A stretch of 64,000 nucleotides of DNA from an uncultured Gammaproteobacteria bacterium. GTDB taxonomy: Bacteria > Patescibacteriota > Microgenomatia > Levybacterales > UBA12049. Shown here piece after piece: positions 1 through 55,481 of this stretch. The translations under genes and the position numbers were made by a program. The notes beneath the pieces were generated by a model that was not told where the DNA came from, made no database searches, and was given only the letters and a program-made list of their open reading frames with translations. Position 1 is the stretch's first letter, and every line of letters begins with the position of its first letter. The DNA lies in NCBI GenBank assembly GCA_965230895.1, contig OZ246394.1:833955-897954 (forward strand), read 5' to 3'.

Positions 1-561
1 AACACATTTATATTGCTCGTAACACACTATGACCAAGTATCAAAAGCTGGTGGAAGTACGACACCTCATTATTATCTTAGTCTCTCATTTATGATGATAC
101 TTGCTGTGCTGGGACTTTTCCATGCGCATATAAATAAACTTAAGTTCTTCCCTTACTTAAGTGTCTTACTTATGTTCGTTTTGTTTGCATGGACATGGCT
201 TATCAACTTTAAAAGTACAGATACAGCATTCTGGTCACCCGCAGCGCATTGGCAATTTAAAGACAGCGTGAAAGCATACACGCTCATCAAAGATAACCAG
301 GTTGAAGATTATAATATTGCTGATTTATCAAGTTATAATACCAACGCTTCTGTAATGAAATACCTTTTAAAACGTGACAATATCGAGATTAATACAGACT
401 ACTACCATAACAAACATCTCTTTGTTATAAAGGCTTCAAATACTGATGTGTATGACACGCTTTCGTATGAAGTTGCATTCTTCAAACCTTCAAAAGTGCT
501 CAAAACATGGGAAATAAATGATTATTACAATCTATATTTGTTAGAAAGAACTGGTCAGTAA
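1..561 (+). CDS. C-terminal fragment of a polytopic membrane protein; 5' end lies outside the window. Paralog of the 7423..8958 product and possibly a GT-C-type glycosyltransferase.
   Basis: The frame is open from the window edge. A TM segment is followed by a soluble tail (…KVLKTWEINDYYNLYLLER) resembling the C-terminus of the 7423..8958 protein (…YVTERTWKFQYNTVLKR). Confidence 0.4.
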   Translation, partial: NTFILLVTHYDQVSKAGGSTTPHYYLSLSFMMILAVLGLFHAHINKLKFFPYLSVLLMFVLFAWTWLINFKSTDTAFWSPAAHWQFKDSVKAYTLIKDNQVEDYNIADLSSYNTNASVMKYLLKRDNIEINTDYYHNKHLFVIKASNTDVYDTLSYEVAFFKPSKVLKTWEINDYYNLYLLERTGQ

Positions 562-5119: not shown

Positions 5120-6808
5120 TTATTCTTTTGGAGATTCTACGAGTATATATGCAGATTCTGCATATGGGTAAGATATCACCTTCTCATTTTCAGGTAAGAC
5201 AATATTTCTTGTCGGATAAGAAAACTCTTTCAAAACAGCCTTCCCTGCTGCACTATCTTTATCAGTAACGAATAATGTTTTCTTCGATGTAGGATACTTA
5301 TCCCAATTAATTTTCTCAAATCGATATTTGCCTATCTTTTCAGCTGTTAATAAAAGTCCATCTTCTTTGTAGGAAACATTTTTATGATAGATCTCCGGAT
5401 GAAATTTTGTATAAAACACTAATCCTGTATAGGAGAAATCTGTTTTAGGGTCAATAATAATTGCGTCATATTTGCCTTCGTTTGCAGCCAGATATTTACT
5501 CAACTCTGATTCTTGAGAACGCCATATTTTTGCCTGATTGATAGGGAAAACAAAGAAATATGTCACCATGTATGTTAGCACCGCATATGAAACAACAAAG
5601 ATTGATAATATTTGTAATCCCCGTTTAAAAATCAGCTGCTTAACTTTAGTTATGTATTCCCATGCACTTACTGCACCATATGCGGAAAATACAACAAGAG
5701 GGATAACTTGCAAGAAACTTCTCGTTGGATGTGGTACTTCTTGAGTCATGGCAATTACTGCAACCTCAAGTACAAACCATAGGAAGAAAAAGAGAAGGAA
5801 TTTCTCTCTCCTTTTCCATGCAGTCGCGAATCCGATTACTAACGTTATTAATTCAAATATATAGAAGAGTCCATGACCAGCCACTCCGTTTACAGTCTTT
5901 GGTCCAGCCAAAAAGAAAAAATCAATTGAGAATGAGTGGATGAGATTTTTGCAATATTCCCAGATGACAAGCAAATATGAATTGAAAATAAGTTTGGTGA
6001 AAACCTCAGGCAAAAGTACTAAATAGCTTCGGAATTCCATATGTTGCGTCTTAATGAATGGACCATTAAGGAACAGCCCAGATGTCTGATCAACTGTTTT
6101 AGCCATAGAAAGTGTGGCAATAAGAAAAGGCAGCAATGTGACGAAACTAAGTACTATACCAGTAATCTTTGTTGTCACTGACCATCGCGCTATATCTTTA
6201 TAGTGAATTGCTATTAACAAAAGTACTAAAATTGGTGCCATTAGTCGTGTAACATTGTATGCATAGAGGGATAATCCAAAAGCAAAAATGGATATTATCA
6301 AGAACCATATATTTCCTTTTTTCTTTATAGCTAAAGTAAAAAATAGCGATCCTAATAATGCCAAAGATGTTGCTACATTTACCTCAAATCCAGTCCTCGA
6401 AAAGAAAAACTGCCATGGATTGAAAGCCAAGAATAGAGCAGAAGCAACAGCAAAATCATTCCTTTTGGAAGTAATTTTAACTAAAAAGAATAATGAGATG
6501 ATCGCAATTATTCCAAATAACGCGGATGGTAAACGTACAGCAAAAGGTGTAACTCCAAAAACTTTTTCTGATGCAGCAGTTAGATAGATATAAACAGGCA
6601 ATTTATTATCATTAAAGGATTTAAAATATAAAGGGTACGAAACACTATGTTCATCTTTGCCTGTTTCGAGGATAGAATATGCGTTATACCCAATACCAGA
6701 TTCGTCTTTATTGAGGCCTGCAGGTATTGACCCGAGTTGATAAAAGCGGAGAAATAAACTAACACCAAAGAGGAGAACAATAAAAGCTATAAGAAGTTTT
6801 TTTACCAT
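5120..6808 (-). CDS. GT-C fold membrane glycosyltransferase, GT39/PMT family (4-amino-arabinose/mannosyltransferase-like)
   Basis: RFYQLGSIPAGLNKDESGIGYNAYS…LPVYIYL…FAVRLPSALFG matches the PMT_2/ArnT N-terminal signature. Multiple TM helices and a C-terminal soluble domain. Confidence 0.7.
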   Translation of the reverse strand: MVKKLLIAFIVLLFGVSLFLRFYQLGSIPAGLNKDESGIGYNAYSILETGKDEHSVSYPLYFKSFNDNKLPVYIYLTAASEKVFGVTPFAVRLPSALFGIIAIISLFFLVKITSKRNDFAVASALFLAFNPWQFFFSRTGFEVNVATSLALLGSLFFTLAIKKKGNIWFLIISIFAFGLSLYAYNVTRLMAPILVLLLIAIHYKDIARWSVTTKITGIVLSFVTLLPFLIATLSMAKTVDQTSGLFLNGPFIKTQHMEFRSYLVLLPEVFTKLIFNSYLLVIWEYCKNLIHSFSIDFFFLAGPKTVNGVAGHGLFYIFELITLVIGFATAWKRREKFLLFFFLWFVLEVAVIAMTQEVPHPTRSFLQVIPLVVFSAYGAVSAWEYITKVKQLIFKRGLQILSIFVVSYAVLTYMVTYFFVFPINQAKIWRSQESELSKYLAANEGKYDAIIIDPKTDFSYTGLVFYTKFHPEIYHKNVSYKEDGLLLTAEKIGKYRFEKINWDKYPTSKKTLFVTDKDSAAGKAVLKEFSYPTRNIVLPENEKVISYPYAESAYILVESPKE

Positions 6809-11693: not shown

Positions 11694-14600
11694 CTAAAGG
11701 TTCTTAATATTTATGTTTAATTGATCGGGTTCACCCTTACCGCTTAGTGGTTTTAGGAAGAGTTCTCCAGTATCATCTTTATATATATCTACACCAGATT
11801 GTTGACCTTTAAGATCGTGGATATCAAAGCCTGCTTTCTTTAGCATTTCTATTTCTCCTGAGTTTAATCTCTTCATTTGTGCAGATGCGTTAATTGCATC
11901 AGTTGCATTAAGAATTTTTCCTGCTTTAATTCCTTTTGCTGCAAGTTTAACTTCGCCAAATATAAAGCTTGCACCAATATCAAAACCCGCACCTCCTTTG
12001 TCAGCTAAACTTGAATTTGGATTTCTTAGAGTATTAACAGCTTCTCTATATAATGAGTTATATATTGCTGTAGCTTGTGGTTTTAATACATCCCTTCCTC
12101 CACTCGTATCTTTCTGAGGCTGATTGTTACCTGCACCTGTATTGTAAACGCTATTGTTAATGGAACCATTTTGAATAGATTTTGTCACAACCACATAATT
12201 ATAATAAGTTGCTGTAGTAGGCTTTTGATAATACGCATTCAAAGCTTGATTATATTTAAGAATTTCGTTCACATGTCCAGACGGATCAGTGTACTTAACA
12301 GGATTATTTTGGACATAGGAATAACTATTTAACGTTTGTGGCTCATATACGTTTTTTACAACAAGATCTGGTTGCGTAAACCTCCTCATGTCTGAACTAT
12401 AGTATCGGGCATTATAATAATTCAGTCCTGTCTCACTATCCTTCTCCTGTCCTGTATATTGGAACTTACTCTTCCCTCCACCAGACTTCACCACACCCCA
12501 AGGATCATATGAAGTTTCTTCAGACACAGATCCTCCAGAGTTAGTTAACAAACTCGCAGATCCGAGATGGTCATTTTGATAGTAGAACCTGTTACCACTG
12601 TTATCTCTCTTTGAAAGAAGCTCTCCATTGACCCAGTAATATGCAGTATTCTGTGCAGAACCTCCTACTGGAGTCTTGGTCTCATATCCATCACTCCATG
12701 AGACCACAGTATTTGCGAGAGTCCCAGTGACATAATTCTTCTTCACCATACGGAGACCGTTGTAGTCATAGACATACTCAGCAATAGTATGACTGTTCCC
12801 ACACTCTTTAACTTTAGACAACTGATTTGCTTCATTATATTCATAACATTTCGTCCCATCAGACGTTAAATTCCCATTCGCATCATACGCATATACTGGA
12901 TGCCAGACATTGAAATTATCAAATATTGCTGATGTTGTAGAGGCTTCAGAACTCCATGTACCTACTTGCTGACCGACAATCATCGATGACACAGGGAAAG
13001 GATTGGCGACAGATGCGAAATTACTCCATGTTCCACCATCAGCTGAAGTATCAAAGTACGTCGTACCAGCTGATTCACGTATGCGGAACCATTTATGGAC
13101 AGCTGGATTATAATCATCCTGTGCCAACCAATTAGATGTGCCATTTACTTTTTTGTACGCTCGGATCTTATTTTCTCCGATAAAGAAGAAGAATTGGTTG
13201 GAATTATCTCCATCGACAATGGTGTAGAGTGGGAAGACTTCCCATGAACCTAATGATTGATTCCCAGCATTCACTACCTGCGTAACCACTGAAGAGTTCG
13301 TAAGGTTGTATGCATTACTACTATCAATGCCATAATATCCACCACCTGCGTTACTTGTCGCTGTGAATTGCTGTGCAGAAACAGTCGCGTTGCTTCCACC
13401 CCAGTTCACCCATCTTCCACTATCTATACTTCCCGTACTCCAGTCGTCTACCAAAGTAGCAGTCGGTGCACTCGCATAATTGAAATTATCAAATGTTGCA
13501 CTTGTCGTGGATCCTTCGCTACTCCATGTACCGACTTCTGAACCGATAACCATTTCTGTCACAGCAAATGGATTTGCAACTGATGCAAAATTTGTCCATG
13601 TCGTGCCATTTGCTGAAGTATCAAAATACGTTGTGCCACCAGATTCTCGGATACGGAACCATTTGTGGACTGCAGGATTGTAGTCATCTTGAGCAAGCCA
13701 ATTAGAAGCACCATTTACTTTCTTGTATGCACGAAGCTTGCCCTCTCCGATAAAGAAGAAGAATTGGTTGGAGCTATCGCCATCAATATATGCATATATC
13801 GGATAGACTTCCCAGGATCCGATGCTTTGATTGCCTGCATTGACGACCTCATTGACGATTGAAGAACTCGTCAGATCATACAACTTACCATTTACATCAC
13901 TATCAACTCCATAATATCCACCGCCTGTTGTACTTGTCATTGCAAGTTGATTGCTAGAGACTGTGACTTGTCCACCACCCCAAATATTCCACTTCGTACT
14001 ATTAATAGTCCCAGATGACCACGTGTCAAAAAGTGATGATGTCAAAGGTGTACCAGATCCATTTACATGAGGAGGAGCTACTTTCTCAGTTGACGAAGTC
14101 ATCGCATGGACTTTGCCGTTGGCACCATATCCATAATCAGTATCTACTCCACTATCAGTGAATTTAGTCAGATTACCAATGGAGCTATACTGATATGCAT
14201 AATTGTATCCTGCGGATTCTGAAGCAGTTTTTAGTCGATCAAGATCATCATAGGTAAATGTCTGCGTTTTACTATCTACTGCATCTGTAATACTTGCAAC
14301 GTTACCCACATTATCATAGGCATAGTTCAAGTCTTGCAGACTGCTTGTCTGAATTCTATTTAATCGGAAGTCATTGGTATTGTATGTATAATTCGTCGTT
14401 AATCCATTGTTGAAATTCTTCTGTGTAATCTTCCCCAACGCATTGTAATTCACATTGCTGACGACATTACTGACCGATTCAATCTCTCCCTGATTATTGT
14501 ACGTATTGGTAATAACTTCACTGTCAGGATTTGTTTGTGTTCTGACTCGATCCATCGGATCATACGCAAATTGTGTCGTCTTGGTGACACCACCGACAGT

Positions 14601-17600
14601 TCTGGCTTCCGCAGTTTTGCGAAGAAGATTGTCATAGGTGTAGGAAACACTTCCCGCAGCATCAGTCACACTCGTTAATGTCCCTTTCCTGCTATTCCCA
14701 TCATAGGTGTAGACGACATCAGTATTTGTAGGATAATCTGTCTTCTTGAGTCGATTAATCTCATCATAGGTCTTTACAACTTGCACATCTCTGTTGTCGG
14801 TTTGTTTTGTGAGATTGCCCACTGCGTCATATTCATATTCCCACGTTCCCATGTCAGGATCAGTCATAGATGTTTTACGACCCAAAGCATCATAGGTAAA
14901 AGTAATATCATTGTCTTCATCGTCTGTAATTTGCATTAATAAATCTCGTGAATCATATGCATATGTTGTTTCATATGTTGCTGCGTCATTTACTTCCTCA
15001 ACTTTGACAATCTTATCGAATGCATTTTTATATTCTTTCTTTACGTTACCATTTTCATCAGTTGTTGTTTCTTTCCAGTGGTCATAGGCAATTGTTTTAT
15101 TGTCACCTTTTGGATTGGTAATTGTTACAGGTCTTCCAATTGCATCATATGTTGTTTGTGTATTTCGGATACCACTTAATGGATTTCGATAATAATCATA
15201 GCTATCATCTTCATGTGGAACAGTCACTTTATTGACTTGCCCAGTCGAATCATAATAGGTATTTGTCACGATTTGTTTTGCTGAGGATGTAGCTTCTGCT
15301 TCTGTTCGTGTCGAAATAGTTCGTCCCAGTCCGTCGATCCATGTATATGTATCAAGCGTTGCAGAGGAAGAACCAGTATTTTCTTTCTTTGAAACAAGTG
15401 TCCCATCTACTCCAGCGGTGTAATAGGTGTATTTTGTTGTTGGATAGGTACTGTTATCACCTGGTTTTATCTCTTTGGTAAGCCTTCCATAGACATCATA
15501 TTCATAATCTGTGGTATTACCATTTGGATCAGTTTTGTAGAGAAGATTTCCGGTTCCCAAATCATAATGGACATAGGTTTCATGGTCTTTAGCGTTCATG
15601 CTAAAAGTAGGATATGTTCCTGTCGTATCATAATTTGTGTATGTATAATGTCCATTCGCGTCCTCAACTTCTGTCTGATTTCCAAAAGAATCGTACGTGT
15701 AATTTGTCGTCGGATCGGTCGTAAACAAACCATCAGTCCACTTTACTTCTTTGGTCAAATTACCTTTTGATGGAGCATCACCTAATCCAGAATGTGAATC
15801 ATAATAGAATGAAGTTTCACTTATTTTTGTCGAATCATTTGATGCTTTGAGTGTCGTCTTTTTGGCTGTATTGACGATCCAATCAGTTGTATTGTACGTA
15901 TATTCATTATATGTATAACGCTCGTCCCCACTAACTCCTGTGTCTCCCAATTCAGATTTCTTTGTCACGTTGCCATAACTATCATATTCAAAGTTTGTTT
16001 GCTTTATCTTTGGATTACTAGCTGAGCCATCATAGGTTAAGATTTTCTCTTCTGTTTGTTTCGTCACGGTTACACCATTTGTCGTTGTATAACTCCATGT
16101 TGGCTGCGTCTCACGATATGGATTGTTTGAGCTATCACGTTCTTGCAGCTCACTCAACTTCCCTGTAAGCGTTTCATATTGATGGAAGACATATTTTTTC
16201 TTTGATCCATTTGGCTCAACTGTATTGACGATAGAAAATCCCTGGAACTGTTTAAGATTATGGTCATAAAATCCATCTTGATAACTATATGTTGTGACAT
16301 CATTTGTTTCTTGATCATTGTCCAAACCGTTATTGACAGTCATTTTAGAAACAACCCATACAGGGAAAGAGAGATCAGATTTACTGTCACTACCCGTATT
16401 GTCATAAATTGTTGATGGCTTATATTCAAAATTAACTACTCCGCCTCTATCTGTTGTTACTTGTTTAAGAAGATGAGGAGCATTTCCGTTATTTTTATAA
16501 ACCTTCCATGATGAAAAATCTCCCTTCACAATATCAGGGAGCCCATCACCAGTAACATCAGTCAATTTTGTTTTATTATCATTAGCATTTATATCAACAT
16601 TTGCAGAATACTCTATCCAATTGTCCCATTGATCTGTCCAATGATCGCCCCTACTGACGAGAACCTTCCATCTATCAGCTCCACCTGGATCCTGATTTTC
16701 GTTCCTGACAATATCAATAAGCCCATCCCCATTAGCGTCAGATATTGTCGATTGAGGCTCTTGGAAATGTGCATTGACGGAATAATCAAGCCATATTGTA
16801 AAGCCCCTGAACCCGCTACCAGTATTGAGCCAAACATACCACGTAGCCCAATTGCCATCGTAAACAGTACGGACAACATCTGATATACCATCATTATTTA
16901 CATCAATCAAACGTACTTGAGGACTTCCAAGTCCTGCTGGCATATTTGTTCCATCAACCCAAACATCACGAGTAGTACTCCAACCTGATCCAGTATTTTT
17001 AAATACTTCCCACTGATAACCTCCGTTATTTGCTTTTGTATGGACGATATCAGGAAGTCCATCTCCGGTCATATCAGCTAAAGTGACATCATTCTCTCGA
17101 AGTTTTATAGATCCATCAACACCACTAAGATTCGTCCAATTTTCAGCTGTAGTATTCCAACTAGTACCAGTATTCCTAAATACTTGCCATACATCTGCAT
17201 CAGGAGAACGAACAATATCCGGTAAATTGTCCCCTGTTACATCAATCAATCGTACATACGGAGTGAATTGTGGATCCAGTCCAGCATTTATACCAGCATT
17301 AGTCACCCAATTTGTCCATTGAGTTGGCCATGAGGTTCCCGTATTTATTAAGACTTTCCATGTAAAGTTAATACCTCCATTAAAATCTGTTCCAACCACA
17401 TCCATATAACCATCACCATTTACATCTGACAAAGTGACATTATCTTGCCCTAAATTAAGATTTATATCTTGATTAATCCATGTCTCAGGCGTGGCATTCC
17501 AGCTTCGAGGCTCATTATTATATTCGAAAGAGGTGGTTAAGTAATTAGATCTATCATCGCCTTTCTCAATTATAGAAGTTAAAAGTGGTTGATTACTGAA

Positions 17601-18491
17601 AGTCGGTGTGTAATTCAAATCATACTCTCTGACAAGATCCTCTCCTATGTATACTTCTATATTGTCAAGATTATTGGGATCAAACATGTAACAACCTTGA
17701 ACGAACACTGGACGTGTATAGCCATGTGCAGGGTTGGAACTTCCACTATCTACATAATGAAATTTGATAATACGGGATTGATCGTTGTTATATTTGATTC
17801 TTTCCAGATAGGACCACCCATACGTCTCACCATATGTATAATAAATCTTATTACTATTGGTATCTGTCACAAGGTCGAGATTCCACATGGTAACAAAATC
17901 ACGATCATTACATTCTCGTTCTGATTGCGATTCATAACCGAAACGGTACTTCGTCCCATCTGGTGTGGTCACAACCCAATACTCACCTTTGACATTAGAC
18001 CCCCCAGTAAGCTTTTGAATTTTCAAATAAGATTCTATCTTTGTATGGTACAAACCGTCTGAAGATACATACACAAGTTCATATACCGCACCTTTGAAAT
18101 ATAATTTAAATTTATCATCGCTTGTATTGGTCGGAGTTCCGTTAACGTCACGCTGAATATACTGCTGGTTTAGAAGCCATCCAATACCAGAGTTCATTTT
18201 CATATCCCTCAAACCTGTACTACTATAATTTATTGAAACTTCAGGTGTTAGATCATTGGTACCTTTTGGAACTTTTATTGGATAAGAATAATTCGCAGAA
18301 CCAGTAAAGATATCAGTCGTAAATCTATCACGTTGATATTTTGGTTCTGTAGTATTTTGGATAGAATAATCAGCAAGTATATCACCGCCCCCAGAAAAGA
18401 GAAGAGCAAAAGAACCAAGGAAACCTAAAGCTAACTTTAATTTAAACGAATGCATATGGTAGTAGGGACAGCTACTATCGATACTCAACAC
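11694..18491 (-). CDS. secreted RHS/YD-repeat polymorphic toxin, TcB/TcC-fusion-like, with SpvB-type N-domain, FG-GAP-like repeats, YD shell, RHS core and a variable C-terminal toxin domain
   Basis: Signal peptide, with the probable ATG start at 18455. SpvB-like GSANYSYPIKVPKG…INYSS…GIGWLL, then six or more DxxGDGxxDxV repeats. Dozens of YD repeats follow (YTYDALGRKT, YEYDAVGNLT…). The core ends in NPVKYTDPSGH (~12273), followed by an unassigned ~190-aa tail. Confidence 0.85.
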   Translation of the reverse strand: MLSIDSSCPYYHMHSFKLKLALGFLGSFALLFSGGGDILADYSIQNTTEPKYQRDRFTTDIFTGSANYSYPIKVPKGTNDLTPEVSINYSSTGLRDMKMNSGIGWLLNQQYIQRDVNGTPTNTSDDKFKLYFKGAVYELVYVSSDGLYHTKIESYLKIQKLTGGSNVKGEYWVVTTPDGTKYRFGYESQSERECNDRDFVTMWNLDLVTDTNSNKIYYTYGETYGWSYLERIKYNNDQSRIIKFHYVDSGSSNPAHGYTRPVFVQGCYMFDPNNLDNIEVYIGEDLVREYDLNYTPTFSNQPLLTSIIEKGDDRSNYLTTSFEYNNEPRSWNATPETWINQDINLNLGQDNVTLSDVNGDGYMDVVGTDFNGGINFTWKVLINTGTSWPTQWTNWVTNAGINAGLDPQFTPYVRLIDVTGDNLPDIVRSPDADVWQVFRNTGTSWNTTAENWTNLSGVDGSIKLRENDVTLADMTGDGLPDIVHTKANNGGYQWEVFKNTGSGWSTTRDVWVDGTNMPAGLGSPQVRLIDVNNDGISDVVRTVYDGNWATWYVWLNTGSGFRGFTIWLDYSVNAHFQEPQSTISDANGDGLIDIVRNENQDPGGADRWKVLVSRGDHWTDQWDNWIEYSANVDINANDNKTKLTDVTGDGLPDIVKGDFSSWKVYKNNGNAPHLLKQVTTDRGGVVNFEYKPSTIYDNTGSDSKSDLSFPVWVVSKMTVNNGLDNDQETNDVTTYSYQDGFYDHNLKQFQGFSIVNTVEPNGSKKKYVFHQYETLTGKLSELQERDSSNNPYRETQPTWSYTTTNGVTVTKQTEEKILTYDGSASNPKIKQTNFEYDSYGNVTKKSELGDTGVSGDERYTYNEYTYNTTDWIVNTAKKTTLKASNDSTKISETSFYYDSHSGLGDAPSKGNLTKEVKWTDGLFTTDPTTNYTYDSFGNQTEVEDANGHYTYTNYDTTGTYPTFSMNAKDHETYVHYDLGTGNLLYKTDPNGNTTDYEYDVYGRLTKEIKPGDNSTYPTTKYTYYTAGVDGTLVSKKENTGSSSATLDTYTWIDGLGRTISTRTEAEATSSAKQIVTNTYYDSTGQVNKVTVPHEDDSYDYYRNPLSGIRNTQTTYDAIGRPVTITNPKGDNKTIAYDHWKETTTDENGNVKKEYKNAFDKIVKVEEVNDAATYETTYAYDSRDLLMQITDDEDNDITFTYDALGRKTSMTDPDMGTWEYEYDAVGNLTKQTDNRDVQVVKTYDEINRLKKTDYPTNTDVVYTYDGNSRKGTLTSVTDAAGSVSYTYDNLLRKTAEARTVGGVTKTTQFAYDPMDRVRTQTNPDSEVITNTYNNQGEIESVSNVVSNVNYNALGKITQKNFNNGLTTNYTYNTNDFRLNRIQTSSLQDLNYAYDNVGNVASITDAVDSKTQTFTYDDLDRLKTASESAGYNYAYQYSSIGNLTKFTDSGVDTDYGYGANGKVHAMTSSTEKVAPPHVNGSGTPLTSSLFDTWSSGTINSTKWNIWGGGQVTVSSNQLAMTSTTGGGYYGVDSDVNGKLYDLTSSSIVNEVVNAGNQSIGSWEVYPIYAYIDGDSSNQFFFFIGEGKLRAYKKVNGASNWLAQDDYNPAVHKWFRIRESGGTTYFDTSANGTTWTNFASVANPFAVTEMVIGSEVGTWSSEGSTTSATFDNFNYASAPTATLVDDWSTGSIDSGRWVNWGGSNATVSAQQFTATSNAGGGYYGIDSSNAYNLTNSSVVTQVVNAGNQSLGSWEVFPLYTIVDGDNSNQFFFFIGENKIRAYKKVNGTSNWLAQDDYNPAVHKWFRIRESAGTTYFDTSADGGTWSNFASVANPFPVSSMIVGQQVGTWSSEASTTSAIFDNFNVWHPVYAYDANGNLTSDGTKCYEYNEANQLSKVKECGNSHTIAEYVYDYNGLRMVKKNYVTGTLANTVVSWSDGYETKTPVGGSAQNTAYYWVNGELLSKRDNSGNRFYYQNDHLGSASLLTNSGGSVSEETSYDPWGVVKSGGGKSKFQYTGQEKDSETGLNYYNARYYSSDMRRFTQPDLVVKNVYEPQTLNSYSYVQNNPVKYTDPSGHVNEILKYNQALNAYYQKPTTATYYNYVVVTKSIQNGSINNSVYNTGAGNNQPQKDTSGGRDVLKPQATAIYNSLYREAVNTLRNPNSSLADKGGAGFDIGASFIFGEVKLAAKGIKAGKILNATDAINASAQMKRLNSGEIEMLKKAGFDIHDLKGQQSGVDIYKDDTGELFLKPLSGKGEPDQLNINIKNL
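12910..14065 (-). repeat. tandem in-frame duplication (2 x ~570 bp) inside the RHS gene, encoding two ~190-aa β-sandwich/lectin-like modules
   Basis: ccgataaagaagaagaattggttgga occurs at 13177 and again at 13747. The protein copies SGTINSTKWNIWGGG…FFFFIGEGKLRAYKKVNG…TFDNFN and SGSIDSGRWVNWGGS…FFFFIGENKIRAYKKVNG…IFDNFN are ~70% identical. Confidence 0.8.
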
Positions 18492-46197: not shown

Positions 46198-47724
46198 TTA
46201 TACTTTTCCTTTTTTAATTCGTTCTATTGTGAAGAATGATATGATCGCACTGAGAAAAGCAAGCGCAGCCCCAATACCGATAACTATTCTAAACGAATAG
46301 AGAAAAGCTTCATCTATCCGTTGCTTTGCTTCAGAAGAAGTATGGCTATCAAAATTTTCTGGTATTTGAATCCCACCTAATTTATTTTTTTGTGAAATAA
46401 TTTGTTCTTGTTGTGATTGAGATAGATTAGACTTCTGCACCGAATCAATAAGATGAGAAGAAAAAGTCATAGACATAATTGCACCTAATAATGCGATGGC
46501 AAGCAACGCGGCAACTCGAGATACAGCATTGTTAACACCTGAAGCAGCACCAGAATAACGTTTATCAACAGCTAATGCTGACTTCGTAAGAGGAGCAATT
46601 ACGAGAGACATACCAAGTCCAAATAAAATTAGTCCAGGCAAAAATGCTACAAAATAATTTGCATTCATTCCTGGCAAAATCATCGAAACCATACCAACAC
46701 CTACAATAATTGGTCCGAGAATCATTGGAATTCGTGGACCAATTTTGTCACTTAGTGAACCAGCTGGACCTGAAAGAAATGTGATTAGGAGAATTGATGG
46801 TAGCATTCCTAACCCTGCAATAATTGGCGAATAGTGCTGTAATTGTTGGAAATTAAGGATCAGAAAAAAGATAATTCCATTGAGAGCAAAATAGAGAAAA
46901 AGAGTAACGAGATTAGCGCCAGTAACTAATTTTGATTGAAAGATCTTCAATGGAAAAATAGGTTCTTCAATCCTTTTCTCCATAAATGCAAACGTACAAA
47001 TTGAAGCAACTCCAAAGATAAGACTTCCTATAACCCATGTATTATAAAGTCCTTGGACAGGAGCTTCGATCAATGCATACGAAATGCCAAGTAGTCCCAC
47101 TAATAGCAAAACTGTCCCAAGAATATCAAGTCGTTGTGAAGCATCATTGCGTGTTTCGGGAACATACTTCAATGTTAAAAATATTGCGAGTAAGCCAATA
47201 GGGATGTTTATATAAAAGATTGATTGCCAACCCAAGACTTCAACCAACCATCCTCCAAGAAATGGTCCAAGTGCTGCAACTCCCCCCGCAAAGCCGGACC
47301 ATAATCCAATTGCTTTTCCCTGCTCTTTATCTTCAAATGCAGTACTTATAATACTGAGACTTCCAGGTATCATCATCGCAGCGCCAATTCCTTGAAACGT
47401 CCGAAACGCAATTAATTGCTCTATTGTTTGCGAGATGCCGCAAAGAAAAGAAGCAAGGATAAACAACCCAATTCCATAAAGAAAAACTTTTTTTCGTCCA
47501 AAGCGATCTCCGAATGAACCACTAATCAATATTAATGATGCTAATATTAATGCATAACTGTTAACGATCCATTGCATGTTATCAAGGGTTGCATTGAGGG
47601 AAGTTTGGATAACGGGGATAGCGATATTGACAACAGTTCCATCAAGAAATGCCATACCACTTGCTAGGATAGTACCAGCGAGAACCATTTTGCCTGCAAA
47701 ATTGCTTACAGTATATTTGCTCAT
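46198..47724 (-). CDS. MFS transporter, DHA2 (EmrB/QacA) 14-TM family
   Basis: 14 predicted TM helices and MFS motifs (GRKKVFLYG, LQGIGAAMM). The start is taken at MSKYTV. Confidence 0.8.
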   Translation of the reverse strand: MSKYTVSNFAGKMVLAGTILASGMAFLDGTVVNIAIPVIQTSLNATLDNMQWIVNSYALILASLILISGSFGDRFGRKKVFLYGIGLFILASFLCGISQTIEQLIAFRTFQGIGAAMMIPGSLSIISTAFEDKEQGKAIGLWSGFAGGVAALGPFLGGWLVEVLGWQSIFYINIPIGLLAIFLTLKYVPETRNDASQRLDILGTVLLLVGLLGISYALIEAPVQGLYNTWVIGSLIFGVASICTFAFMEKRIEEPIFPLKIFQSKLVTGANLVTLFLYFALNGIIFFLILNFQQLQHYSPIIAGLGMLPSILLITFLSGPAGSLSDKIGPRIPMILGPIIVGVGMVSMILPGMNANYFVAFLPGLILFGLGMSLVIAPLTKSALAVDKRYSGAASGVNNAVSRVAALLAIALLGAIMSMTFSSHLIDSVQKSNLSQSQQEQIISQKNKLGGIQIPENFDSHTSSEAKQRIDEAFLYSFRIVIGIGAALAFLSAIISFFTIERIKKGKV

Positions 47725-47769
47725 CTTTCCAGAGTATAGCAAAAGTAAAAATACATGTATAATACTTTT

Positions 47770-48144
47770 ATGGAAATTTTGTATACCATTCAAGGAATCA
47801 TCAAAAAAGGTGCTGGAAAAGGTCGTGAATTTGGTTATCCAACTGCAAATGTAAGCTTACAAGATCATGTCCCTCCTGGTGTTTATATATCGCAAGTTAT
47901 TTTAGAAGAGAAAGTATATAACGCAATAACATTTATAGGAAGTGCAGTAACATTTGGGGATCCTGAATATAAATCAGAGACAACTCTTCTTGATTTCGAT
48001 CAGGATATTTATGGAAAAGAAATAACAGTAAACTTACTCAAGAAAGTACGAGATAATGCAAAATTTGAAAGTGAGGAAGCATTAATTAAACAAATGGATA
48101 AAGATATGTTAACTACGAGAAGCTTTTTCGATGATATCCGCTGA
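47770..48144 (+). CDS. ribK: monofunctional riboflavin kinase
   Basis: GIIKKGAGKGREFGYPTANVSL and …LLDFDQDIYGKEITVNLLKKVRDNAKFES flavokinase signatures. The start is taken at MEILYT. Confidence 0.75.
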   Translation: MEILYTIQGIIKKGAGKGREFGYPTANVSLQDHVPPGVYISQVILEEKVYNAITFIGSAVTFGDPEYKSETTLLDFDQDIYGKEITVNLLKKVRDNAKFESEEALIKQMDKDMLTTRSFFDDIR

Positions 48145-49050
48145 TTTCTTTTGTAACGGTTTCGTAACTTGATAGATAGCAACCAGTAACAATGCTACAC
48201 CAAAAATCTGTGTCCAACTTAACACTTTTCCAAACACGAAGTAATCAATCAGAATTGCCGATGCAGGCCAGACAAGTTCGCACAATGTCGTAATTCTTGC
48301 AGGTGTTTTCTTCAATCCATAATAGTAAAAACCTAAAGCAAGCATACCAGTAGAGAATGTAATAATGAGTAGTGTCTGTAGTTGAGAGAATGTAATCGCG
48401 GTAAGCGCTGTTCCTTGGTTGCTTGCAAGAATAATAAGGAGTGCAAAAACAGGAGCAAGAAGAAAACGTAATGCTGTCGCCGCAAGGAACGAAACTTTAT
48501 TGAGAACAAACTTACTGATTGCCGTTGATGACCCCCAAAGAACTCCAGCAAGTAATGCAAGGAGTCCCGCCATTGCTGTTTCACTTCCAGTATTGAGATT
48601 TACTGTCAGGTCTTTAAACGAGATAAAGTATGCAGCAACCAATGCAACAATTGCCCACAAAATAAACTTTTTGCTAACTTTTTCTCGTAATAATATTGCT
48701 GCTGTCAGAATTGCCCAAATTGGTTGGAGCTGTTGTTGTAATAATACTACAACTGAGTATTGTGAATACTGAATCTTACCCAATGCTGCGGTATAAAGCA
48801 TTGTCCCCAAAGCACCTGAGAATAAAGCAACTGCGAGAATCGCAATCCATTCTTTCCTTGTAAGCTTTTTTAATTCTTTAAACCAATATCTGGAAAGGAA
48901 AAGAAGCACGACAGCACCTATAATATGTTCATAAAATACGATGACTGCAGGAGGAAGCGAGTATAGATTTATCCGTAGGAGTCCATCAAAACTCCACAAT
49001 AAAGCTGCAATAATAACAAACAGCGGACCAAAGGCTGCAATTTTTTTCAT
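48109..49050 (-). CDS. EamA/DMT superfamily transporter, predicted riboflavin importer (RibN/ImpX-like) because of the upstream FMN riboswitch
   Basis: 10 TM helices in two EamA repeats, with an RFN-like element in the 5' UTR. Confidence 0.6.
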   Translation of the reverse strand: MKKIAAFGPLFVIIAALLWSFDGLLRINLYSLPPAVIVFYEHIIGAVVLLFLSRYWFKELKKLTRKEWIAILAVALFSGALGTMLYTAALGKIQYSQYSVVVLLQQQLQPIWAILTAAILLREKVSKKFILWAIVALVAAYFISFKDLTVNLNTGSETAMAGLLALLAGVLWGSSTAISKFVLNKVSFLAATALRFLLAPVFALLIILASNQGTALTAITFSQLQTLLIITFSTGMLALGFYYYGLKKTPARITTLCELVWPASAILIDYFVFGKVLSWTQIFGVALLLVAIYQVTKPLQKKSADIIEKASRS

Positions 49051-49100
49051 ATAATCTTCCTTTCTTTCTGATCAAAGATCAGAATAGCAAAATAAATTTG

Positions 49101-49205
49101 CTTCCCGACTGTACGGTCGCTGTCTGAGTTACACAGACTCGTGATGCGCTATGCGTATCTCGTGGAGTTTTACCACCGATGTTGAATTACACAAACCCCT
49201 GAAAG
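49101..49205 (-). ncRNA. FMN riboswitch (RFN element), divergent variant
   Basis: Minus strand CAGGGGUUUGUGUAAUUCAACAUCGGUGGUAAAACUCCACGAG…GAGUCUGUGUAACUCAGACAGCGACCGUACAGUCGGGAAG resembles the RFN consensus …GCAGGGUGAAAUUCCCGACCGGCGGUAGUAAAGCCCGCGAGC…GGAUUCAGUUUAAGCUGAAGCCGACAGUGAAAGUCUGGAUGGGAGAAG. Compensatory changes keep the stems (GUGG/CCAC for GCGG/CCGC, and GUCUG/CAGAC for UUCAG/CUGAA). Confidence 0.5.
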
Positions 49206-49215
49206 AATTGTATTT

Positions 49216-49244
49216 ATAATAGATGGTGTAGAAGAGGTTGTCAA
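49216..49244 (-). promoter_or_regulatory. sigma70-like promoter TTGACA-17-TATTAT driving the riboswitch and transporter
   Basis: Consensus -35 and a good -10 lie ~10 nt upstream of the RFN element. Confidence 0.45.
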
Positions 49245-49259
49245 CAGATGTTTGGAGAA

Positions 49260-49745
49260 TTAATGTTTAATATCACGTGCAACGTCCAACGCTTTCAGAA
49301 CAGCTTGTGCACCTTCAATACCTTTATTATGATCATTATCACCTGCACGAGCTTCTGCTTGCGCTTTTTCAAAAACAGCAAGAATTTCTATCGCTACCGG
49401 CATTTTATAATCTTGTGATAATTGCATTAATGCTCTTGCACATTCATTAGCGATCATTTCAAAATGATATGTCTCACCTTTTACAATAATTCCAAATGTG
49501 ATAATTGCATCAAACTTTTTTGATTCGGCTGCGACTTTGGCAACGAAGGGAATTTCCCAAGCACCAGGAGCATTAAAGATCTCAATATTTTCTTCATGAA
49601 CACCTGCATCTAAAAGCGTATTCTTTGCATGTTTTTCTAAGTTATCATTAAGTTCCTGATGATAATCAGTTCTAATAATTGCTATACGGATATTCGCTGG
49701 ATTAAGTACGTGCAACACTAATTTTTTATCTTGCTTTTGTATCAT
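49260..49745 (-). CDS. ribH: 6,7-dimethyl-8-ribityllumazine synthase
   Basis: APGAWEIP and GIIVKGETYHFEMIA lumazine synthase motifs. Confidence 0.85.
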   Translation of the reverse strand: MIQKQDKKLVLHVLNPANIRIAIIRTDYHQELNDNLEKHAKNTLLDAGVHEENIEIFNAPGAWEIPFVAKVAAESKKFDAIITFGIIVKGETYHFEMIANECARALMQLSQDYKMPVAIEILAVFEKAQAEARAGDNDHNKGIEGAQAVLKALDVARDIKH

Positions 49746-49746
49746 C

Positions 49747-50328
49747 TTATTTATTTATAACAAATTTCTCTAAATATTTTGCCAATACATCAACTTCAAT
49801 ATTTACAATATCGCCAGGTTTAGTCGTATGTACCATGGTTTTATCCCATGTATGAGGAATGATACCAACCGTGAAAGTTTCTTTATCTACTGAGATCACT
49901 GCCAAGGAAATTCCATTCATTGTTATTGAACCCTTCGCAACAATATATTTTGCAATCGATTCGGGGATGAAGACTGAGAAGATTCTACTATTCCCTTCGT
50001 CTTTTATTGACTGTATCTTCCCTACTGCATCGACATGTCCTTGGACAATATGACCAGCAAGGAATGTTTCACTCGTTGCAGGCAATTCTAAATTTACCAG
50101 ACTTCCAATTTCTAATTGCTGAATATTTGTTTTGGCAGCTGTCTCTGGCATAAATTCTATAGAAAATGTTTCATTATCAAAAGCGACAGCAGTGAGACAA
50201 ATTCCATCGACAGCGATACTCATCCCCAAGCTTAACTTATCGAGAAGACCTGCATCAGTTGTAACTACTAATTTATTTGAAGTTTTTTCTTTGATAGTAC
50301 CAAGATGCGTAATGATTCCAGTGAACAT
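49747..50328 (-). CDS. ribE: riboflavin synthase alpha subunit
   Basis: MFTGIITHLG start and two Lum_binding repeats. Confidence 0.85.
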   Translation of the reverse strand: MFTGIITHLGTIKEKTSNKLVVTTDAGLLDKLSLGMSIAVDGICLTAVAFDNETFSIEFMPETAAKTNIQQLEIGSLVNLELPATSETFLAGHIVQGHVDAVGKIQSIKDEGNSRIFSVFIPESIAKYIVAKGSITMNGISLAVISVDKETFTVGIIPHTWDKTMVHTTKPGDIVNIEVDVLAKYLEKFVINK

Positions 50329-50399
50329 TTCCAAATTATATCACCCTTTATCTTTTTGTGGACAAGCAATAGATATTTATAAAAGATAGAGAAAGAGCA

Positions 50400-50978
50400 T
50401 TAAACTTCAAGCGGATGACGTTCTACATTTTGAACAGTTCCATCTGATAATGTTACTTCTATAATTTCACCGCGTTGGATAACTTTCTCAGCATTTTCAG
50501 GATCCCAGAAATAACGCGGCGCTTCCTCCTGAATTAAATAATAATAAAGTACTGTCAAAGGGTCTCCGTGCGAAATAAGAATTGTATCTCTGCCATCGGC
50601 AACGGTCTCATCACAAATACTTTTCATTCTTTGCAGCATAGATTTGTGTGTCTCACGAGTTCTATTATCTTCTTCTTCAATCCAATGCTTTTCTGATGCA
50701 TGTACTTTTCCTTGCAATTCTGGACATGATGATTCAATGAGCCTTCGGTCAATTATCACCATTGATTTCGTCTGAGCAGCAATAATCTCTGCAGTTTGTA
50801 CAGTGCGGACAATTGGGCTGGCGATAATTGGCGTTTTATGTAACTCTCTTTTTATGAACCATTCTCCTAGCGTATCTGCCTGTCTTCTGCCAAACTCTGT
50901 TAGATGAAAAGGGAGGTGAAAAGCGTAAAGATGTGCTGGATTGTAGTATTCTGTGTGACGAACAAAATAAAGTTTCAT
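50400..50978 (-). CDS. histidine phosphatase superfamily protein (PGM-like branch)
   Basis: VRHTE (RHG variant), SPIVRTVQTAEI and LISHGDPL motifs. Confidence 0.6.
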   Translation of the reverse strand: MKLYFVRHTEYYNPAHLYAFHLPFHLTEFGRRQADTLGEWFIKRELHKTPIIASPIVRTVQTAEIIAAQTKSMVIIDRRLIESSCPELQGKVHASEKHWIEEEDNRTRETHKSMLQRMKSICDETVADGRDTILISHGDPLTVLYYYLIQEEAPRYFWDPENAEKVIQRGEIIEVTLSDGTVQNVERHPLEV

Positions 50979-54511: not shown

Positions 54512-55108
54512 TTATTTGGCTATTTTTGCAGGCGTGTAGTATACACCGAGAACTCCAGAGGACTCGAAAGCTTTTGCGTATGTAAGCTGCAATTTATTTC
54601 TTTCCTCAAGATCTTTAAACAATGGCATCCCTTTCCCAAGAACAATTGGCTGTACTTTGAATCGGTATTCATCAACAAGATTGAGTCGTACCAATGTCTG
54701 AGCTAAGCTAACTCCTCCGAATAGGACTATATCGCCTCCTTGAGACGCTTTAAGATTTGTTACTTCTCTAATAATATCTTCATCGTTTTGTACAGAAAGG
54801 ACAAAAGAATTATTCCACTCTGCTTTTTGAAGTGTTTTGGATACAACGTACTTTGGAGAATCAATCAACCAATTTGCAAACTCTACAAGTTCTTTTGGAC
54901 TATTCGGATCCTTCGCCATTGCAGGCCATGCTTGAGAAAAACCTTCATAAAGAACTCTGCCCATAATCATACTATCCACAGTCTTGAGAAGATCTGGGAT
55001 AAGTGACATTGAGACCACAGGATCCTGGATTTCCCAATCCAGTTCCCCTTTTGGACCACTGACATACCCATCGACAGAAAGTACCATGTATAAAATTATT
55101 TTTCTCAT
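54512..55108 (-). CDS. dihydrofolate reductase-like (RibD_C family) protein
   Basis: MRKIILYMVLSVDGYVSGPKGELDW signature; length ~198 aa. Confidence 0.7.
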   Translation of the reverse strand: MRKIILYMVLSVDGYVSGPKGELDWEIQDPVVSMSLIPDLLKTVDSMIMGRVLYEGFSQAWPAMAKDPNSPKELVEFANWLIDSPKYVVSKTLQKAEWNNSFVLSVQNDEDIIREVTNLKASQGGDIVLFGGVSLAQTLVRLNLVDEYRFKVQPIVLGKGMPLFKDLEERNKLQLTYAKAFESSGVLGVYYTPAKIAK

Positions 55109-55109
55109 A

Positions 55110-55481
55110 TTATGCAGCTGCCTCATTAACTTCGAAGATACCAAATGTATTTCCCTGCGTATCTATAAAATATCCTTGCCAACATCGACCTGGGACAGCA
55201 AATTTTTGCATTGCAACTTTCCCTCCGAGAGAAAGAATTTTCTGTGCCATTGAATCAAAATTATCTACCTCTATCGAACAGACAAAGGCATTTGCGCCAC
55301 CAGAAACAACTGGAGCAGAACGTTTAAGTAGACCTCCATTTATGCCATTTGTTTTAATATCATAAAATTCCACTGGGGCTCCTTCTTGTTTGGTGAACTC
55401 CCATCCAAAAAGCTGTCCATAAAAATCTTTTGCTGCAGCAGGATCATCTGCATGAATTTCAAAGAACATGACGTTATTCAT
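55110..55481 (-). CDS. VOC/glyoxalase family protein
   Basis: FEIHADDPAAAKDFYGQLFGWEF; paralog of the 57267 product. Confidence 0.75.
   Translation of the reverse strand: MNNVMFFEIHADDPAAAKDFYGQLFGWEFTKQEGAPVEFYDIKTNGINGGLLKRSAPVVSGGANAFVCSIEVDNFDSMAQKILSLGGKVAMQKFAVPGRCWQGYFIDTQGNTFGIFEVNEAAA

Follow-up and report, generated by a model that had tools for sequence, protein, structure and literature searches.

A divergent FMN riboswitch upstream of a probable riboflavin importer gene in a Microgenomates bacterium

INTRODUCTION

Bacterial riboflavin importers have repeatedly come to light through the flavin mononucleotide (FMN) riboswitches that precede their genes. RibU, RibM, RibN and ImpX were all identified in this way, and ImpX, RibN and others have been confirmed by their ability to complement an E. 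coli ribB mutant (PMC4418817). RibN, a riboflavin importer of the DMT family, occurs in alpha- and gamma-Proteobacteria, and in the former its gene is preceded by an FMN riboswitch (PMC4418817, PMC10012899). Here we describe an FMN-class riboswitch (49207..49058) in the leader of an EamA/DMT transporter gene (48109..49050) that is predicted to encode a riboflavin importer. Both lie in a stretch of 64,000 nucleotides (contig OZ246394.1, positions 833,955 to 897,954), called the window throughout; coordinates are those of the window, and features are on the minus strand unless stated otherwise.

The second importer that bears on this locus, ImpX, is found in Fusobacteria, Firmicutes and Proteobacteria, also under an FMN riboswitch, and was reported in that study solely in riboflavin prototrophs (PMC4418817). 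A first-pass annotation of the window, made from the sequence alone, had taken both ImpX and RibN for DMT-family importers. This is right for RibN (PMC10012899), whereas ImpX is described instead as a distant homolog of eukaryotic RFT2/SLC52 (PMC4418817). As for the riboswitch, Atilho et al. (2019, PMC6298564) list the FMN contacts in the numbering of the crystal structure 3F2Q: the ribityl-phosphate moiety is contacted by G10, G11, G32, G62 and G84, the isoalloxazine ring by A48, A85 and A99.

Bacteria of the candidate phyla radiation (CPR), whose genomes are tiny, are presumed to rely on other organisms for many cofactors; their acquisition of vitamins is poorly annotated. The searchable literature gives no description of FMN riboswitches or of a transporter-kinase module in CPR. 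Judged by its sequence and by that of orthologous leaders, the transporter leader in the window is a real FMN riboswitch, far beyond a chance resemblance, though sub-threshold in Rfam. Our overall explanation is that this riboswitch turns off a riboflavin importer by way of its closing helix P1 and the Shine-Dalgarno (SD) sequence within it. FMN binding, SD sequestration and the transported substrate are all predictions here, and we assign the explanation as a whole a probability of roughly 0.72.

RESULTS

Identity of the element

A permissive Rfam scan of 48950..49350 (401 nt) aligns the full RF00050 (FMN) model, positions 1-138, to 49092..49210 with 59.3 bits and an E-value of 4.3e-13. The remaining four matches are snoRNA models with E-values of 5-8. 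A family-specific covariance model gives the window element 87.9 bits. A chance match is ruled out by the E-value and by conservation in 54 orthologous loci.

Between the ribH stop codon (49260) and the transporter AUG (49050) lie a promoter, the aptamer core ending in GUCGGGAAG (49101), two hairpins and a purine tract. The core begins with UUCUUUC-AGGGG, 8 nt 3′ of the TATTAT box, and the purine tract AGAAAGGAAG, followed by AUUAU-AUG, ends the leader. J1/2, P2, P3, P4, P5, P6 and the start of J6/1 occupy 49102..49200, as delimited by the RF00050 alignment, covariation and column conservation. The near-invariant 5′ strand of P1, UUCUUUC (49201..49207), pairs with 49064..49058 in the minimum free energy (MFE) fold. 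The core motifs quoted in the first-pass annotation are found in the sequence. Its bounds, 49101..49250, cut off the last third of the element at the 3′ end, which comprises both inserted hairpins (49101..49066) and, at 49064..49058, the 3′ strand of P1 with the SD sequence. The central claim of a divergent but real FMN riboswitch at this locus is borne out by the full-length RF00050 match, by covariation, by intact contact nucleotides and by the presence of the element at 54 of 74 loci.

Conservation and covariation

Scanning one genome per species yields 80 transporter loci from Levy-, Roizman-, Gottesman-, Davies- and Curtissbacteria, of which 74 are preceded by 250 nt or more of sequence and can be evaluated for the riboswitch (individual relatives carry the prefix L below). 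With the window aptamer as the query, nhmmer finds the element upstream of the transporter in 53 loci. The family covariance model, built from an alignment of 21 compact members, detects it in 54 of the 74 evaluable Microgenomates loci as well as in the window, with a single match per locus that is always immediately upstream of the transporter. Many of the metagenome-assembled genome records with transporter and riboswitch (TPA assemblies; L002, L004, L006-L008, L011, L012 and others) are titled "uncultured Gammaproteobacteria" or "Pseudomonadales"; these titles are probably taxonomic mislabels.

RNAalifold applied to the 21 compact members recovers the P1-P6 FMN fold, with compensatory changes in P2-P5. 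In the alignment of 55 orthologous leaders, which uses the P6 register of Rfam and the crystal structure, 95.8% of cells are standard pairs, compared with 36-53% when the partners are slid. Double-sided changes occur in 296 cells (85.7 ± 11.0 in shuffles, none of 500 matching the observed value), and 20 of 29 pairs show compensatory changes. Because it was fitted to the covariance model, this alignment is biased towards the structure. We nevertheless regard the covariation signal as real, given the slid controls and the fact that RNAalifold recovers the fold independently. Covariation of the six-stem fold across the 55 leaders is strong. An alternative P6 register given by RNAalifold (CGAC/GUCG) was dropped, as C-G to G-C swaps are seen only in the Rfam/crystal register.

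On CPR metagenome contigs, riboswitches of this type are found before ribB-like and ribE-like genes as well. A pattern scan of metagenomes returned 47 stretches, mostly chance matches in unrelated high-GC coding DNA; 12 were judged to be riboswitches (those named are L085, L087, L090, L091, L098, L102, L107, L112, L118, L119 and L121). In L085 (about 6560..6710), L090 and L107, the element stands before a dihydroxybutanone phosphate synthase-like gene (MFSSIPTAIEELKKG...) or riboflavin-synthase-like genes (MYTGII..., MFTGII...). Some Microgenomates therefore regulate riboflavin biosynthesis with a CPR-type FMN riboswitch.

The ligand pocket

The 3F2Q numbering was mapped onto the window through what we take to be the 3F2Q sequence, which agrees with each of the base identities listed for the contacts. 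On this presumed map, G10-12 correspond to 49199..49197, G32/33 to 49177/49176, A48 to 49160, G62 to 49140, G84/A85 to 49118/49117 and A99 to 49103. The window has G at positions 10, 11, 12, 32, 33, 62 and 84, and A at positions 48, 85 and 99. Across the family, the contact positions are kept in 53-55 of 55 members, the exception being A85, which is G in six. As far as sequence can tell, the pocket is of the FMN type and not that of an altered-specificity variant; FMN binding itself is a prediction.

The six members with G at position 85 (GCGGCCG; L005, L011, L035, L037, L055 and L058; positions 92 and 105 of the A3 model) all carry GUCGGAAU instead of GUCGGGAU, with A at the position of G98. 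The GUCGGAAU-type change is present in eight members overall. The two substitutions may represent a coordinated change of the binding pocket.

The two-hairpin insert and the Rfam score

Most relatives are compact: P6 is followed by GAUG-AAA-GAAAGAAU, and P1 is formed by UUCUUUC/GAAAGAA. In the window, a two-hairpin insert (49101..49066) separates J6/1 from the distal P1 3′ strand. The MFE fold comprises hairpin A (GCAAA-UUUAU-UUUGC, 49087..49101) and hairpin B (UUCUGAUC-UUU-GAUCAGAA, 49066..49084). The latter includes CUGAUCUUUGAUCAG (CUGAUC...GAUCAG, 49082..49068), a hairpin that the first-pass annotation had offered as a possible expression platform. The hairpin exists, and we assign it instead to the core of hairpin B; it is no sequestor, and the platform would be P1 itself.

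The position of the insert is exact. In the window and in L003, L011, L019, L031, L035, L037, L055 and L080, GAUG (in the window, GAAG) directly precedes it, and (A)AA with the P1 3′ strand directly follows. Further insert-bearing cases come from the metagenome pattern scan (L090, L098, L102, L107, L119 and L121) and include a GC-richer lineage with a canonical GUCUUC/GAAGAC P1. Fourteen of 15 inserts fold into two adjoining hairpins of unrelated sequence, with a mean z of -3.9 against dinucleotide shuffles; the window insert has a ΔG of -11.8, compared with -3.3 ± 2.2 in shuffles (z -3.9). The distal purine strand pairs with the P1 5′ strand over 5-9 bp in all 13 members for which a P1 5′ strand can be assigned.

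The RF00050 gathering score is passed by all eight compact relatives (77.8-98.1 bits), compared with just two of 11 insert-bearing members (69.0 and 70.6 bits). In the RF00050 alignment of the window leader, the P1 pairs are marked as non-canonical. The score of the window is low because the model is unable to bridge the insert and aligns P1 into hairpin A. The cmsearch check proposed in the first pass is thus positive in its E-value and six-stem fold and negative in its score relative to the gathering level, a shortfall for which the P1 insert accounts. Two-hairpin inserts may define a subclass of FMN riboswitches that is systematically missed at standard Rfam thresholds. The insert may also have a function of its own, such as slowing co-transcriptional closure of P1 or tuning its dependence on ligand.

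The promoter

A promoter scan of the minus strand identifies TTGACA (-35 box, 49239..49244) and TATTAT (-10 box, 49216..49221) with a spacing of 17 and 11 of 12 consensus matches. Transcription is predicted to start at about 49209, 1-2 nt before P1. TTGAC is found upstream of 39 of the 55 orthologous riboswitches, and a TAnnnT box ends exactly 8 nt 5′ of the first P1 pair in 37 of them, giving a sharp peak. The full TTGACn-16..18-TAnnnT-6..10-P1 architecture is present in 35 elements. The near-consensus promoter reported in the first pass is confirmed by the scan and by this positional conservation, which amounts to phylogenetic footprinting. Since the promoter holds its position relative to P1, the transcript would start essentially at P1.

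The transporter and its neighbors

The transporter coding sequence (48109..49050) specifies 313 residues and matches Pfam EamA with 118 bits over two domains. Its homologs number over 1200. Identity is 70-84% for the best of them, which, if they bear a name, are called DMT family transporters of Levybacteria, Roizmanbacteria or Microgenomates (Patescibacteria/CPR). At E-values up to 1, Pfam returns EamA and negligible matches to UAA and MitoNEET_N, with no SLC52-type family. The sole match in a profile search of the PDB is the DMT permease LicB.

The gene adjoining the transporter on its 3′ side encodes a monofunctional riboflavin kinase of 129 residues (47755..48144, plus strand), which matches Pfam Flavokinase (PF01687) over profile positions 5-124 of 124 with 114.3 bits (cutoff 19.6) and an E-value of 5e-33. 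Among the 75 loci with enough downstream sequence to be evaluated for this linkage, 45 have a riboflavin kinase no more than about 1.4 kb from the transporter; it is convergent in 20, co-directional and immediately downstream in 21, and upstream in four. The kinase is also present at 15 of the 20 loci that lack the riboswitch. This linkage supports a module that imports riboflavin and traps it. Uptake of riboflavin with subsequent phosphorylation is the most economical reading because of the kinase linkage and the OFF logic of the switch, and the substrate of the transporter is most likely riboflavin. The first-pass prediction of a riboflavin importer in a rib locus thus gains support from linkage to the riboswitch (54/74) and to the kinase (45/75).

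In the window, kinase and transporter are convergent and their 3′ ends overlap by 36 nt (48109..48144). A similar convergent near-overlap occurs in about 20 relatives, so that the two genes may influence each other through transcriptional interference or antisense effects.

Upstream of the transporter lie ribH (lumazine synthase, 49260..49745; Pfam DMRL_synthase with 145 bits and TIGR00114 above its cutoff) and ribE (riboflavin synthase, 49747..50334; NF006767 with 210 bits, above its cutoff). ribH is an upstream neighbor, outside the control of the transporter riboswitch. All three riboflavin genes named in the first pass are confirmed; the order it gave, ribK-ribH-ribE, is not, as the kinase flanks the transporter on the opposite side. 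The gene adjoining ribE (50400..50978), directly upstream of ribE-ribH, was considered as a kinase and ruled out: it encodes a histidine-phosphatase family protein (His_Phos_1). The neighborhood of ribH, ribE and the phosphatase is common only to the closest relative, L001, so we regard it as lineage-specific. No riboflavin biosynthesis genes are found nearby in 79 of the 80 transporter loci.

The His_Phos_1 gene is kept beside ribE-ribH in L001 (1185..1754) with 79% identity. Its product could be the enzyme for the otherwise elusive dephosphorylation in riboflavin biosynthesis, a step that HAD-family enzymes carry out in the known cases. A stand-alone RibD_C protein (pyrimidine reductase-like) that lacks a deaminase domain is encoded at 54512..55144, about 5 kb away from ribE/ribH. 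None of ribA, ribB, a deaminase or an FAD synthetase is found among the 40 distinct open reading frames (ORFs) of the window scanned against Pfam. With RibD_C alone and no ribA, ribB or deaminase among the scanned ORFs, the riboflavin pathway may therefore be partial or scattered. A DHA2/EmrB-type MFS efflux gene (46198..47793) diverges from the riboflavin kinase, the annotated starts overlapping by 39 nt. Its start (TTG) is probably further downstream, and the same neighbor is present in L001 with 72% identity. Finally, the window contains an ORF of 2265 residues at 11694..18491.

DISCUSSION

Proposed mechanism

We propose that abundant FMN would bind the six-stem aptamer and stabilise the closing helix P1 (49207..49201 with 49064..49058). 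The stabilised helix would hide the ribosome-binding site in its 3′ strand and thereby turn translation of the transporter off. This would be an OFF switch with neither a separate sequestor hairpin nor a terminator, in which the insert (49101..49066) would make P1 close a larger junction. The transporter would import riboflavin, and the adjacent monofunctional kinase would convert it to FMN, both trapping the flavin and making the ligand of the riboswitch.

The arrangement of the leader is consistent with this scheme. The P1 duplex UUCUUUC/GAAAGGA has a predicted energy of -6.8 kcal/mol and contains one G-U pair. Its 3′ strand, GAAAGGA (49058..49064 in the MFE register), overlaps the SD-like GGAAG (49060..49056), which is located 5-7 nt before the transporter AUG. 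Compact relatives have a P1 3′ strand (GAAAGGAAGAAU or a close variant; GAAAG(A/G)AAGAAU) that ends 3-7 nt before the AUG; with nothing intervening, P1 must therefore carry the ribosome-binding site. Hiding of the SD sequence in P1 has also been predicted for some FMN-like RNAs of subtype 1 (PMC6298564). A terminator scan of the transporter leader predicts no terminator.

Other relatives (L045, L062, L070, L016, L023, L028, L043, L065 and others) have a different platform, in which a conserved CCCCGAAAGGGG hairpin followed by U6-8 abuts the AUG. The 5′ half of CCCCGAAAGGGG is the exact reverse complement of CUUUCGGGG, that is, of the P1 5′ strand plus J1/2. This complementarity hints at control by a terminator and an antiterminator, again with OFF logic, where the antiterminator would form with the 5′ end of the aptamer. 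Termination may be combined with SD masking in these members.

Several observations weigh against the overall explanation. The RF00050 score of 59.3 bits is below the gathering score of 66.2 and hence formally sub-threshold, and an Rfam scan of the entire window at the gathering threshold gives no match. The riboswitch is absent from 20 of the 74 evaluable loci. Where most relatives have GAUG in J6/1, the window has GAAG (U100 to A). P1 can pair in three or more registers within 49068..49055, and in one of these the SD core stays unpaired; the helix is also AU-rich and present in the ligand-free MFE fold, and the thermodynamic model alone does not show switching. In a survey of start sites covering 59 window ORFs of at least 120 residues, SD-like motifs precede just five of the longest-ORF starts, a count that is subject to uncertain choice of start codon. 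SD usage in the genome appears low, and calling the purine tract an SD sequence therefore rests on position and analogy. In the same survey, a TATAAT-like -10 box stands immediately upstream of the start codon in 16 of 59 ORFs, against 13 of 59 in a control interval, so that leaderless transcription is indistinguishable from the control. For the transporter itself, NCBIfam gives only TIGR00950 and YddG, generic or exporter models that score far below their cutoffs, and DMT proteins are often exporters.

Alternative explanations

The last point bears on the substrate. The riboswitch might be real and the transporter might move another flavin-related compound, such as FMN, FAD (flavin adenine dinucleotide), 6,7-dimethyl-8-ribityllumazine or 5-amino-6-ribitylaminouracil (intermediates feeding ribH/ribE), or export a flavin. 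In the window and in L001, the transporter does sit beside ribH, ribE and the histidine phosphatase. The RibD_C-only protein about 5 kb away, together with the lack of ribA, ribB and deaminase among the 40 distinct ORFs compared with Pfam, would suit this reading, as would the many exporters among EamA proteins and the generic/exporter character of the best NCBIfam matches. However, repression by FMN fits an importer or a biosynthesis gene rather than an exporter, and 79 of 80 loci have no riboflavin biosynthesis genes nearby, yet 45 of 75 have a kinase whose substrate is riboflavin. In 21 loci, this kinase is co-directional with and directly downstream of the transporter. We consider a substrate other than imported riboflavin unlikely.

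The mode of control invites a similar question. In the window, the inserted hairpins could act by premature transcription termination or RNA decay (e.g., hairpin A with a U-rich tract) in place of P1 and the SD sequence, and the many relatives with a terminator platform, CCCCGAAAGGGG followed by U6-8 at the AUG, lend this some weight, as does the UAUUCU directly after hairpin A. The window, however, lacks the CCCCGAAAGGGG element, the terminator scan of its leader is negative, and hairpin A is a weak 5-bp stem with two G-C pairs and no U-run. Moreover, the AUG is as close to the P1 3′ strand as it is in compact relatives, which lack any other platform. Control through the insert has, in our view, only a small chance of being correct. 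It would be more surprising still if the aptamer had drifted to another ligand, as in the rare Clostridioides difficile variants of the FMN riboswitch, or were a decaying, non-functional relic, with its low score reflecting the drift. The sub-threshold score, the U100-to-A substitution in J6/1 and the presence of a transporter gene downstream, as in the known variants (PMC6298564), all fit such a history. Those variants, however, have G-to-A changes at ribityl/phosphate contacts (PMC6298564), whereas the window keeps every G and A contact. All stems are intact, the insert accounts for the score deficit and the family model returns its full 87.9 bits, which makes drift or decay very improbable. 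An FMN riboswitch that acts through P1 on a riboflavin importer is thus our preferred explanation.

Implications

The locus supports a functional call for the widespread Microgenomates "DMT family transporter", namely riboflavin import, phosphorylation and feedback by FMN. We further propose, tentatively and at slightly less than even odds, that the highly conserved Microgenomates EamA/DMT proteins are a riboflavin importer family distinct from RibN and ImpX, that with flavokinase and riboswitch they form the main flavin salvage module of bacteria with such reduced genomes, and that the insert marks a subclass missed by Rfam. Riboswitch-based surveys of vitamin auxotrophy in CPR genomes will undercount FMN riboswitches that bear the insert. 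The element belongs to a sub-threshold structural subclass of the FMN riboswitch, stands before a probable riboflavin importer and is not mechanistically surprising. It is useful for CPR annotation and for improving the Rfam model, and the understanding of FMN riboswitches is unchanged.

Comparison with known systems

The closest described RNA is the RF00050/RFN element (B. subtilis ribD, F. nucleatum impX, PDB 3F2Q). The window element shares its six-stem aptamer, junction motifs and ligand-contact nucleotides, its site in the 5′ untranslated region before a flavin gene and, by prediction, its OFF logic. It differs in the two-hairpin domain between J6/1 and the P1 3′ strand. In the Microgenomates, moreover, P1 is an almost invariant UUCUUUC/GAAAGRA helix that appears to double as the ribosome-binding site, and the aptamer begins at the 5′ end of the transcript.

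RibN and ImpX were compared with the transporter through their descriptions in PMC4418817 and PMC10012899. By these descriptions, RibN resembles the window protein as a DMT/EamA-type permease of about 300 residues with an FMN riboswitch, usually monocistronic. The window family, in contrast, belongs to CPR/Microgenomates and is tightly linked to a monofunctional riboflavin kinase, a link that these descriptions of RibN do not mention. ImpX, again by description, is likewise encoded by a monocistronic gene behind an FMN riboswitch, and differs as a distant RFT2/SLC52 homolog from the window protein, which matches only EamA in Pfam. Transporter genes also follow the rare FMN variants of subtypes 1 and 2, which are likewise divergent, FMN-like aptamers (Atilho et al. 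2019, PMC6298564). Unlike these RNAs, which reject FMN (PMC6298564), the window element retains the complete set of ligand contacts.

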